Source: Octopus vulgaris | Lineage: Eukaryota | Assembly: GCA_951406725.2 (NCBI GenBank) | Contig: OX597819.1 | Coordinates: 79,484,001-79,548,000 of the forward strand | Length of the DNA: 64,000 nt | Reading direction: 5' to 3' | In this document: positions 11,842-58,179 of the stretch, piece after piece | How the letters are laid out: the number at the start of each line of letters is the position of its first letter | Numbering within the stretch: position 1 is the first letter of the stretch | Program-made: the position numbers and the translations under genes | The notes under the pieces: model-generated | Database searches by the model: none | What the model was told of the DNA's origin: nothing | The model's input: only the letters and a program-made list of their open reading frames with translations

Positions 11842-14741
11842 TTTTTTTATCCAAGGGGAGGCAATAGGAGCAACAACCACAGGGACACCACAAAATAATA
11901 TAAAAATATAGCATATCAAGACACGAGTAAAATTCCGGCGAATAGTACATAAAACATAATACACATACAAAATATAAGATATACAGAAGTCCACCATCTA
12001 CCGGCCGTTTCGGGGATGTGCCAATCAATACTAGACATATCAGTACTTAAAATAGTACTTAAAATTGGCACTCCCCTCGTCAGGATGTCATATACAACAC
12101 ATATAAAACATAAACAAACACACAAATACATAGTCACATACCAGCCATTCTCAGAACCCGATATTTACGTACCCCCAGAAAAAAATTTACGTCGATCTTG
12201 AATAGAACTTTATACGCAAGCCATTCGATACAGTCGCCATAGGAAATTGTATACACGCAGCGCCATCTGGCCCGTTTCACTTCAGCACTTAATTTATTTT
12301 ATTTTATTTTATTCCAATTTTATAAATTCTCCCATACATGCAAAGCCACATACTCATGTTCGATTCCTCGACTAACAGCTATTTTTCATATAATCACATT
12401 ACTTTAGTTTTATCTCGTTTTCCACTCACTATACTTACTAAACTTAATTCACTTGTTATTGGTTAGCTGTAACTTTTATTGCTATTCTACTTGTAAATTC
12501 CCTACCTATTTTTTAATAATTACATTACTTTAGTTAAATCTCATTTACCACTCACTATATTTACTAAACTTAATTCAATTGTTATTGCTTAGCTCAAACT
12601 TTTATTGCTTTTTCTATTTCTAAATTTCTATAGAACGTCGAGTGGATCTTATGCGTACACGCCGGTATTGCATCAGTGAACTTATTTAATACTGCGTTGT
12701 TATAATTTTTCAATATAGTGTATGCCTCCCTTATGCATAAACCGCATCTAGTGGACCCAATTCTATAAGGAGAGGCATGCGCAAGGATAGCCCATGATAT
12801 TTTAAATTCAACATTCCTTTCCTTGAGGTCGTTAATATGTAATGCCAGTGTTATAGAGGTCCTATATTTAGAATTGTTGAAGGAGCTCAGGTAGGATCGA
12901 TACCTCTGCTTAAAGTCTACAGTGCTTCCGATATATATTTTTATCTGGCCTCCTTGAGCCTCAACACTACATTTATAAACCACATTTTCCTGGCGACAAT
13001 TCCCCTAATCGGACATTCAGTTGGGTCCCTACAATTACATTTCTTCAACCTGCTACGGGGTCTCGTATTATTGATAACTCCGAAACCGTGTGCATTCCTT
13101 GTACTAGGATCCACCATATCATCCACACCATCGTTCGTACTATTTTCCGGTATAATTATTCTATTATTATTCCTACTATTTCCATTCTTCTTATTTTCAA
13201 TTGTATTTTTATTTTTACTAATATTTTTATTACCATTTCCACTACTATTAACACCATCAATACCACCCTGATAATCATTATAATCACTAATATCATCACC
13301 GACATCATTATTATGATTATCTCTACTATTTATATTATTTGTCACCCCAACACGCCTTTCACAATCGATTTCAGAAGACGTACTATTAATATTAATACCC
13401 TCTTCTATGTCTCTAATGAATTTTCCATTAAAGCTTCTGTCATCATTTCTATTATTATAGCGTCTTATTTTACTTCTGTTCAACGAAGCAATAATATATC
13501 CGACATTGGGAGTGACTGAGTAGGCCAGCTTGATTGTTGACTTGTTACATATTGAATAATACTTATGGTGTTTTGGGAAAATTTTCTTCAATAACTTAAA
13601 AAATAGCTTTGGTAAACCTTTCACCCTTAATGAAAAGGGAGGGGCAAACCAAGTAACTTGACGAATCCTATGCTTAGTATTAATAGTGGGATTACAATAT
13701 GTTGCTTGGCTTGATGTACTAAATGTAAGGGCACTTCTGTATCTATTACTAATATTAAATCTCTATTACTACTAGTGTTATTCTTATTTCTATTACCACC
13801 TTCATTAGACCTAAACCTAACGTTACACCTTAATTCACATTTATGATTCATATTATTTGTAACCCCTTCCCTCCCGTTACCGTTATCGTCCATGATATTT
13901 TCATCCTTACAAATCTCATTATTAGCCTTATTAACGTGGTTACCATTTACAAGACCAACCACATCGCATTCCTTTCTCCTATTTCCAAAGCTTCTTTTAT
14001 CAGCACAAATATTGGTCATTATTAGCTTGTTGCCATCCGAAATCCGTTTCATATCGTCGCTGACCATGCTGGCCAATTTAATTTTTAATTTGGTATTGGG
14101 TATGTATTCAATGTCATTTGTGAACCCACTCAATTTCAAGGCATTGTTGTATATTGGGGCGTGTTGATTAAAGATGTTTTCATTCGCCGATAGGTTTGAG
14201 AGTCTGATAGAAATTGCACTTACGATGCTATTGATGGTTGATTTGGGATGATTTAAGGAGACATTGATATATTGCAAAGTTTGGTTTGGTTTTCGGAAGG
14301 GGTAGTGCAAGCTGGTATTTAGGTCGAGAGTGACATCCAGGAAATTTGCCACTTTAGGATTATTCTCAAAAACGATGCTCAAATTATAAAAGTCCTTAAG
14401 AAATTCTCTAAGGTCCGTTTTCATTCTTTCAATTTGTGGATTTGAATGATTAGAGACGATGAACAATGCATCATCCCTATAAATCCCTCCGGATAGAGAT
14501 GGGAAAACTCGCTTAATCTTGTCTAACAGAAATAGACCAACGATATCCGTTACTTGAGCCGAGTCCGAAGATCCCATAGTGATGTCGAATAAATTAAAAG
14601 AGTCCGATTTAAACCAGTGGTGCGTTCCATAATTTATCAGAGTCATTCTTGCTGCTTGAATAATGTCAATATCTAGATTCGATATTTCAACAAAGTTCCG
14701 GGCGAAAATGATTGCTTTGTTCAGTAAGATGGGAGATATCG
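11841..14741 (-). mobile_element. Penelope-like retroelement of a second clade (YRDD-type RT), 5'-truncated, frameshifted
   Basis: ITMGSSDSAQVTDIVG, GIYRDDAL, NFLDVTLDL, PFRKPN…YIN…NHP; CNCR…CP linker; VYKCSV…IYIGST…FKQRY…CGLCIRE…LNK…CTH (GIY-YIG). 3' UTR has a ~125-bp-period duplication and an HHR, and ends at (TA)n. Confidence 0.9.
11995..12087 (-). ncRNA. Type I hammerhead ribozyme, canonical core, long stem II
   Basis: catc-CTGACGA-gggga gtgccaat…attggcac a tcccc-GAAA-cggccgg-TA-gatg. All core nucleotides present, 13-bp stem II, GUA cleavage triplet. Confidence 0.88.
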
Positions 14742-14809
14742 AGATATACATACATATAAATATATACACATATGTGTGTGTGTGTATGCATGTGCGCGCG
14801 AGTGCGTGT

Positions 14810-16951: not shown

Positions 16952-17165
16952 AGACACACGCAAATGCACTAAATGAGGAGTAGATAGACAGCCGACAACT
17001 GATGAAGGGTCGTTTTTCTTTGTAAACTTGTCCTGTTTTCCATCTTTTCCTCGATGTTTACTTATTGCATTCGTTTTTGTCCTATATTTACTTTCCACGT
17101 CTTGTATCTAGCTCTCGTGTGTATGTTATTTGCACCGTTGGTGACGTCCTGTACCCATATATGCA

Positions 17166-17225
<60 letters not shown>

Positions 17226-17473
17226 TGCATATATGGGTACAGGACGTCACCAACGACACACATGCATATATGGGTACAGGACGTCACCAACGGTGCAAAT
17301 AACATACACACGAGAGCTAGATACAAGACGTGGAAAGTAAATATAGGACAAAAACGAATGCAATAAGTAAACATCGAGGAAAAGATGGAAAACAGGACAA
17401 GTTTACAAAGAAAAACGACCCTTCATCAGTTGTCGGCTATCTACTCCTCATTTAGTGCATTTGCGTGTGTCTC
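16951..17473. repeat. Near-perfect palindrome (~225-bp arms) centred on (TA)n
   Basis: The arms are reverse complements apart from a 4-nt indel and a 37-bp tandem duplication in the right arm. The ORF track shows mirror ORFs (17054+ and 17374-). Confidence 0.95.
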
Positions 17474-22190: not shown

Positions 22191-22450
22191 ATTTATTAAT
22201 AAGGCTGTAAAGATATTACAAAAACTGTTACCCAGAGCTTCACGTTCCCGTTCTTAATTTGGAGAAAAAAATAAAGAACTTTATTTTTGTTCCATACTCA
22301 ACTAAAACTGTCCGACGAACGCGAACGTGAAGCTCTGAGTAACAATTTTTGTGATGTCTTTGCAGCTTTAATAAAGGACCTTACTCTACCTCCGGTATTC
22401 GAGTACTATTTTGTTCCCAATTTGTTTCACATTTATATGCTTACTCTGGA
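22191..22450. mobile_element. Palindromic twin-hammerhead element in (TA)n (copy 1)
   Basis: Left arm 22191-22253 (minus, partial HHR). Right arm has tgt-CCGACGA-acg cgaa cgt-GAAG-ctc t gag-TA-aca (22309-22344), then AATAAA and a ~75-nt one-sided tail. Confidence 0.8.
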
Positions 22451-38489: not shown

Positions 38490-38692
38490 TGATCGCCTGT
38501 GTATCGTTGGCGATTTTTTTTCCTCCGTCTTCCCTTCCTTGGATCTTTCATTTTCCTATGTTTCTGACGAAGAGCTCAGCTCGAAACGTTAAATCCTCCT
38601 TCTTTATTTCTTTTCCTGAGCGTCCAATAACACTATACTTCTTCCACGTCCTCGCGTTGTTGTGTTTTCTCTTTGAGTTTTCATGTTTGGAT

Positions 38693-57756: not shown

Positions 57757-57836
<80 letters not shown>

Positions 57837-57840
57837 ATAT

Positions 57841-58077
57841 ACTTTATTTAAAACCAGCAGTAATATAACAAAAGCTGCTACTCAGAGTTTCATGTTCCCC
57901 TTCGTCGGACAGTTTTGTTAAAATATTTTAGCTAAACTGTCCGACGAACGGGAAAGTAAAACTCTGAATAACAGCTTTTGTTATATTTCTGCTGCTTTCA
58001 AATAAAACATTCTACTTTACCTCTGGTATTTGAGTACTCTTTTTTCCACCTTGTTTCACATTTATGGGCCTACTGCA

Positions 58078-58078
<1 letters not shown>
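57841..58078. mobile_element. Palindromic twin-hammerhead element in (TA)n (copy 2)
   Basis: HHRs at 57875-57912 (-) and 57937-57974 (+), consensus ctgt-CCGACGA-acg ggaa cgt-GAAA-ctc t gag-TA-acag. The left arm ends just past AATAAA; the right arm has a ~70-nt tail homologous to 22376-22450. Confidence 0.85.
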
Positions 58079-58123
<45 letters not shown>

Positions 58124-58179
58124 GTATATAAAATTGCCAACCAAGTGTGATGGTCTATACAGGACAGTACTACTGATGT

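Follow-up and report, generated by a model that had tools for sequence, protein, structure and literature searches.

Opposed hammerhead-bearing ends of a Hydra-clade Penelope-like element in (TA)n of Octopus vulgaris, probably primed twice on one RNA

Introduction

Among the insertions left by Penelope-like elements (PLEs) are some in which an inverted, 5'-truncated copy is present together with a tail on one side only, and the formation of such tandem and inverted insertions has been named an open question (PMC8557442). Members of the Hydra clade (Craig et al. 2021, PMC8557442) are marked by the motifs RWK and DKT, a CxCX5C linker, CxxC and CxH around a conserved E and N, and no CCHH; they combine an RT with a C-terminal GIY-YIG domain, the linker motifs, a hammerhead ribozyme (HHR) near the 3' end and a (TA)n target, and the element described below is like them in all these respects. 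In the same work Penelope-13_HM is listed as having HHRs on both strands together with an inverted copy truncated at its 5' end. In Schistosoma mansoni, minimal HHRs on opposite strands about 100-700 bp apart, a situation similar to ours, were read as truncated PLEs (Cervera and de la Pena 2014, PMC4209133), in a single sentence and with no analysis of ends or junctions found in the accessible part of that paper. For PAc, a Poseidon element of Anolis carolinensis studied in vitro, a dimer is predicted (Frangieh et al. 2024, PMC11167929), and de novo PLE insertions have a median length of 128 bp (PMC9977147). Further literature related to PLEs is found in PMC6765202 and PMC6962438.

Here we analyse palindromic elements of this kind in a 64,000-nt stretch of the Octopus vulgaris genome (GCA_951406725.2, contig OX597819.1, positions 79,484,001-79,548,000; hereafter the window). 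They are almost certainly extremely 5'-truncated insertions of a Hydra-clade PLE, likely made by one RT/GIY-YIG complex that primes two cDNAs on one RNA. The original prediction knew of no description from cephalopods; there is one for the clade, as Hydra-1_Obim of Octopus bimaculoides is listed with an HHR and a preference for (TA)n (PMC8557442 File S1/S2). The HHR found here is unlike that of Hydra-1_Obim, and we are therefore dealing with another family.

Results

Two insertions in the window

Positions in the element are counted from window position 57934, the first A of AAACTG before the hammerhead (+1), with negative numbers upstream and 0 included. The proposed architecture of opposed short and long arms in (TA)n is real at 57841 and recurs at 22191 (Table 1), without the spacer that had been described at 57841, where each arm reaches element position -9 and the two overlap by the central TA. 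Nor does each locus carry a different spacer as such: the interval at 22191 consists of 22 nt of upstream element sequence and 27 nt of filler, and, judged from the alignment, what had been called a spacer is mostly upstream element sequence. By eye, the end of the filler and the start of the adjoining long arm form a small local inverted repeat. The long arms of the two loci are 78% identical and belong to one family.

Table 1. Positions of the parts of the two insertions in the window.
Feature	Position	Strand	Basis
Second insertion (older B subfamily): short arm, element ~+13 to +73, without 5' hammerhead box	22192..22253	-	
Junction filler, 27 nt, no alignment to reference copy	22254..22280	.	
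Second insertion: long arm, element -22 to ~+145; hammerhead remnant at 22308-22345 (U4C, A15.1G)	22281..22450	+	
Left (TA)n target	57757..57841	.	TRF + sequence
Short arm, element -9 to +74; AATAAAG is the short outer end	57842..57925	-	
Minimal type I hammerhead remnant in short arm (U4C core, GAAA intact, stem II broken)	57875..57912	-	
Long arm, element -9 to +146; central TA (57924-57925) common with short arm	57924..58079	+	
Minimal type I hammerhead remnant in long arm (U4C, G12A, stem III mismatch)	57937..57974	+	
PLE tail, 72 nt, between the two outer end points; directly precedes the ORF in tandem copies	58008..58079	+	
Right (TA)n target	58079..58130	.	TRF

The window also holds sequences of other origin. 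An inverted repeat of 188 nt at 16985-17443, 99% perfect, with a (TA)n core and a 37-nt tandem duplication, belongs to another family and is either a very young insertion or an assembly fold-back. A decayed ORF at 12651-14757 (minus strand) shares 34-37% identity with the L076 protein and represents another Hydra-like PLE family, and a motif scan found a hammerhead-like CTGACGA...GAAAC of a different repeat at ~38560-38600 (plus strand). Elsewhere, short inverted pairs of other repeats lie around (TA)n (L007 at ~1300-1500, and the flanks of L002, L019 and L029), possibly representing further PLE-family ends.

The hammerhead motif

The layout of boxes and stems of a minimal type I hammerhead is present in the family, as had been proposed: stem I CTGT/ACAG, the box C[T/C]GA[T/C]GA, a short stem II, GAAA and a palindromic ACTC-N-GAGT, with the cut after A. 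We identified it from its core boxes and with the help of the table of Hydra HHRs in PMC8557442; no hammerhead family is found among the 150 listed of 287 Rfam matches. The idea of two hammerheads per palindrome stands in part, as motif remnants lie on opposite strands in both arms at 57841; both of these have additional core or stem damage and neither is intact, and at 22191 only one is whole, the short arm being without its CUGANGA box. Both copies are decayed and predicted to lack ribozyme activity, and neither arm at 57841 is predicted to cleave, because the long arm has lost G12, the catalytic base of the hammerhead, and the short arm has lost stem II. Since the two motifs are on opposite strands, one transcript would hold one of them in sense, paired with the other. 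Minimum free energy folds of five monomers did not form the full hammerhead and were no more stable than shuffles, as is expected for dimer-type motifs.

A C at core position 4 (U4C) is found in 94/117, 33/38 and 25/29 arms of the A, B and young sets, respectively; the core is canonical in just 14/117, 4/38 and 3/29 arms, and U4C but otherwise intact in 61, 9 and 18. CTGATGA, the canonical form, is found in L084, L086 and L087, which are tandem and full-ORF copies. With U4C in the majority of amplified copies and the canonical core in tandem full-ORF copies, a working ribozyme may not be needed for amplification. A splice acceptor in front of the hammerhead was considered and rejected: TTCTAG/C is present in young copies, and its AG is missing in most A-set copies.

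The parent element

The arms are almost certainly the HHR-bearing 3' end (pseudo-LTR, or pLTR, plus the 72-nt tail) of an autonomous PLE, which its motifs place in the Hydra clade. The PLE origin put forward originally is borne out by termini identical to those of ORF-bearing copies in the same genome, and the autonomous element with such a terminus, the search for which had been suggested, was found (L076 with its 727-aa frame, L084, L088 and L090). In L011 and L012 the arm is joined upstream to a 3'UTR of ~1.26 kb and to nuclease and RT fragments. Open frames of 726-727 aa directly follow the pLTR and tail in L076, L078 and L081, that of L076 being a single frame of 727 aa, and L084 is a 3.43-kb tandem copy with the ORF after pLTR and tail. 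Partial tandems occur among L211-L240, and in tandem copies the sequence continues past both end points into the next ORF. In L087 the tail is in frame with the ORF, with the first in-frame ATG further on; L010, L012 and L021 have AATGAAG instead of AATAAAG, which gives an ATG in frame with tail and ORF.

Two copies, L088 and L090, contain the ORF between an inverted long arm ending CTCC/TGG and a short arm ending AATAAAG, both on (TA)n, and the palindrome is the shortest form of this structure. Arm lengths are continuous up to these ORF-bearing copies with the same termini, so that a separate class of mini-retroelements, as first envisaged, falls away. The (TA)n target is upheld: TATATA follows 47/105 short ends and 89/153 long ends, most of the others being variants of it (24 unparsed per set).

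The 727-aa product is predicted to be a TERT-like RT with a GIY-YIG nuclease. Neither the full frames (2/2) nor ORF fragments gave a Pfam match, and a homologue search with the ORF returned 915 matches among 8000 scored candidates, nearly all unnamed. In a structure model built from 108 sequences (pLDDT 92.5), the best Foldseek match is TERT 3du5_A (E 3e-9), and residues 578-688 match the GIY-YIG domain of I-TevI, 1ln0_A (Z 9.3, rmsd 2.4, 89/92 aligned); a weak match to PF01541 (E 0.006) was obtained for the homologue P0063. YRDD is present in 108/108 aligned sequences, and RWK, DKT, CxCX5C, CxxC-E and N-CxH, at 36, 112, 561-569, 666-672 and 685-696 of the 710-aa query, are conserved across alignment A1, with CCHH absent from the ORF product as read from its cysteine and histidine positions. 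The family thus has the TERT-like RT, the C-terminal GIY-YIG domain, the pseudo-LTRs formed by tandem and partial tandem copies, the inverted 5'-truncated copy and the one-sided tail of PLEs.

Outer ends and their pairing

The two outer end points lie at +74 (short, exactly at AATAAAG) and at +146 (long). We compiled 92 head-to-head pairs from six search sets, leaving out 14 duplicate or query loci; the loci are the best-scoring matches of each search and not a random sample. Eighty pairs join a short to a long end, 2 are long+long, 1 is short+short and 9 have one end unclassified, giving one end of each kind in 80/83 classifiable pairs, and in the set whose query had no tail this holds for 18/18. 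The use of two fixed outer ends on opposite strands, as had been proposed, is supported. The lone 3' ends of UTR-bearing copies (n=30, hand count) are 13 long, 12 short and 5 other, and with such an almost even division, mixed pairs would make up about half if the ends were chosen independently. The partner of 58 tail-queried long arms is short in 38, vestigial short in 4, long in 2 and lacking in 14; for 58 young-subfamily loci, half of them also in other sets, the figures are 38 short, 1 long, 5 other and 14 none. Four seemingly single long arms (L163, L165, L170 and L202) are preceded by an inverted short-end remnant of 4-20 nt.

The short end has no downstream bases and no A-tail, which makes an origin at a polyA site unlikely, and from the sequence it is probably an internal RT start. 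Hence the proposal of two RNA 3' ends, one of them at the polyA signal, does not fit: AATAAAG carries no A-tail, and tandem copies run through both points, as is described for the internal starts of PAc (PMC11167929).

These data also bear on the reading of the palindromes as an ordinary DNA MITE with TA target duplications, or as an assembly artefact, which inverted arms flanked by TA would at first suggest. However, the outer ends are unequal in 80/83 pairs, the centres are variable and the termini are identical to those of an RT element, and since an RT-EN ORF is linked to the arms the MITE reading is refuted; the symmetric terminal inverted repeats and constant interior of a Tc1/mariner-type MITE were not found. 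At 57841 the arms match over 73 nt at just 88% identity (E 2e-21 within the window), which argues against a fold-back library artefact, and the centre (57894-57963) is bridged with 0 differences by one 84-nt short-read contig of run X1, which may be the assembly's own sample. We regard both explanations as exceedingly improbable.

Coupling of the two arms

The junctions vary from locus to locus, in keeping with the suggestion that the palindromes are built at insertion. Bases are left unassigned at 19/27 and 13/21 junctions, partly through divergence, and most show no clean microhomology; the mean central overlap is ~2 nt vs 0.6-0.9 in the null, with just 8 filler-free junctions per set. Nevertheless, the arms of a pair tend to end at similar positions. 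Among 38 young pairs the inner ends are correlated with a Spearman rho of 0.75 and lie within 10 nt of each other in 28, vs 14.6 by permutation; rho is 0.84 for the 15 young pairs with an end outside -10 to +14, and 0.56 and 0.52 in two further sets. Matching ends outside the common zone include -36/-38, -18/-18, -63/-53 and 28/33. The breakpoint calls are conservative and, in diverged arms, shifted by several bases.

Minority alleles are shared within loci about 2 to 4 times as often as in permuted data in all three sets (32 vs 13.4, 34 vs 15.1 and 26 vs 5.9), as expected if, according to the original prediction, both arms come from one source. The GAAA>GAAG change reported as private to 22191 is indeed present in both of its arms and, among the 16 B-set pairs, in no other. 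The proposed comparison of mean arm identity within and between loci gave values that are only slightly higher within (0.920 vs 0.912, 0.860 vs 0.827 and 0.957 vs 0.928).

The inner (5') ends accumulate in one zone, with 17/29 in -9 to +10 and 1 beyond in one set, and 18/29 in -9 to +14 in the youngest set, where 11/29 extend past -9, up to -435; the pile-up is also seen in single arms (8/14 in -9 to +14). In 30 ORF-start loci the 5' ends are scattered. A hard transcription-start wall at -9 was thus discarded in favour of a merely preferred zone, as 11/29 of the youngest copies run past it and it is absent in ORF-start copies. HHR-cleaved RNA as the usual template was also rejected, there being no clear 5'-end peak at the cut site, +38 (3/29 in one set, including one locus, L010, that comes from another set too, and 0/29 in the other).

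Correlated inner ends and shared variants would be explained directly by fold-back, in which a cDNA primed at +146 copies itself, the nuclease resolves the product at the TA-like site after +74, and later central deletions trim the unstable arms of the palindrome. It has been suggested that palindromic PLE junctions arise by self-priming (PMC3846280) and the tail by EN-mediated resolution (PMC8557442), and at 57924 the sequence AAAA-TA-TTTT makes the junction a perfect palindrome. We nevertheless consider fold-back rather unlikely. A long cDNA folding back on itself cannot give a short arm that reaches at least 4 nt further upstream, and this is seen in 15/38 pairs (hand count; the long arm reaches further in 11, and the two are within 3 nt in 12). 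Besides, short ends terminate long UTR- or ORF-bearing copies (12/30 in the UTR-query set, 11 of which have no inverted arm in the fetched flank), and the arms of L088 and L090 cover different parts of the element.

The last two copies fit with twin priming on two templates, either separate RNA molecules or two pLTR-tail copies within a tandem RNA, bound by a protein dimer with one start site per subunit: their arms would be non-overlapping parts of a tandem RNA. Such a mechanism accounts for the short+long pairing without any stretch being copied twice, but alone it leaves the matching inner ends outside the common zone (rho 0.84, 15 pairs) unexplained, and to us it seems quite improbable.

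Abundance

In four unselected 200-kb blocks (800 kb) we found 5 insertions, all short and none with the ORF of the family. The density of ~1 per 160 kb corresponds arithmetically to roughly 17,000 copies in the 2.8-Gb assembly (Poisson range ~6,000-41,000). Summed contig depth over the tail exceeds 10^6 in 3/4 runs vs 19.5 for the junction contig, which is not a copy number, and a 66-nt genome query gave no match.

The dominance of short copies (5/5 in the unselected sequence) would agree with a self-propagating non-autonomous mini-element or retrozyme-like RNA, whose palindrome is itself transcribed and copied whole, and so would the few junctions that recur, such as -9/-9 in L001, L122 and L125, from a set selected for its resemblance to this junction. 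This possibility is very improbable, however, as junctions mostly differ in the tail-queried sets, the polarity of long and short arms relative to the junction varies, and the HHRs are on opposite strands, one in sense per transcript. No tandem HHR arrays were seen in the copies examined, which are head-to-head pairs or single arms and not the head-to-tail units, each with a complete HHR, of a non-LTR retrozyme.

Discussion

The short+long pairing, the correlation of inner ends and the shared minor variants favour two priming events by a single RNP on the same RNA, a step that we hold to be reasonably likely from the pattern of the copies. All the evidence on the mechanism comes from genomic copies. 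The nuclease would nick both strands of (TA)n, and each freed ...TATA-3' end could pair over ~4 nt with the bases that follow an end point in the RNA (CAUAU for +74, UGUA for +146), so that one RT/GIY-YIG complex could use each target strand to prime one cDNA, at different internal sites of the same RNA. Both cDNAs would be extended in the direction of the RNA 5' end, and the upstream-running one would displace the other; end-joining would then link their 3' ends head-to-head, either with little overlap or through a short filler. The frequent stops near -9 to +14 may reflect a common 5' end of the RNA or stalling of the RT at the ribozyme. Unclean junctions, the leaky 5' pile-up and the 14/58 long arms without a partner speak against this reading; moreover, shared alleles require one source element and not one RNA molecule, and gene conversion between the arms could contribute to them.

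A stricter rule, specific to PLEs, recorded by thousands of such copies and not met with in the literature covered, can be put forward tentatively, with the odds slightly against it: in each insertion a single RNA molecule would be primed at both start sites, each from a different target strand, and both cDNAs would run off its 5' end. A unit-length transcript has its only tail at the 5' end and would then yield only mini-palindromes, so that full copies would arise only from tandem or circular RNA. If true, this rule would explain by a single mechanism why the terminus is inverted, why the tail is one-sided and why partial tandems are needed.

The structure itself is expected of PLEs, and in our view the value of the family lies in a large natural data set on tandem and inverted insertions with a one-sided tail, whose pairing and matched inner ends constrain models left open by one in vitro study. 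Copies with long open frames are also present in this genome and could be assayed. For annotation, palindromes of ~250 bp belong under PLE ends and not under MITEs, miRNA hairpins or working ribozymes.

Of the systems described, Hydra-2_aMil (also written Hydra-2_Amil) has the closest HHR layout: its stems I (ctgt/acag) and III (actc-N-gagt-a) are the same as here (PMC8557442 File S2). The unit here is ~3.4 kb with a 3'UTR of >1 kb, whereas Hydra-clade elements are given as <3 kb, and the tail has 72 nt vs the 30-40 nt given for PLEs; the U4C core, in the majority in three sampled sets, is a further difference from the Hydra-clade families (PMC8557442). PAc is similar in having two internal RT starts that bound the tail at the pLTR-ORF junction and an AT-rich target of which both strands are cut and extended, with HHR cleavage unneeded for insertion. 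It belongs to another clade, however, and in the accessible part of that study the use of its start sites does not differ between strands and an obligatory pairing of one short and one long end within an insertion is unreported (PMC11167929). Head-to-head inverted pLTRs, an optional one-sided tail and junction palindromes are also known from Adineta vaga and from Penelope of Drosophila virilis, although mainly in ORF-bearing copies with target duplications, which the TA repeat would hide here (PMC3846280, PMC2377424). Non-LTR retrozymes are non-coding, derived from PLEs and carry type I HHRs as well, but they are head-to-tail tandem repeats, whereas our pairs are head-to-head and built anew at each site (bioRxiv 10.64898/2026.07.22.740005).

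The family may already be catalogued in Repbase/Dfam, which, like subscription papers, was outside the scope of our search; in the accessible open literature no count of end pairing or inner-end correlation was found. Already in print are the inverted 5'-truncated copy with a one-sided tail, the insertion in (TA)n, closely spaced minimal HHRs on opposite strands and a Hydra family in Octopus. New here are the near-strict short+long pairing, the inner-end correlation and the shared minor variants, in a new family of a known clade with a known insertion geometry.
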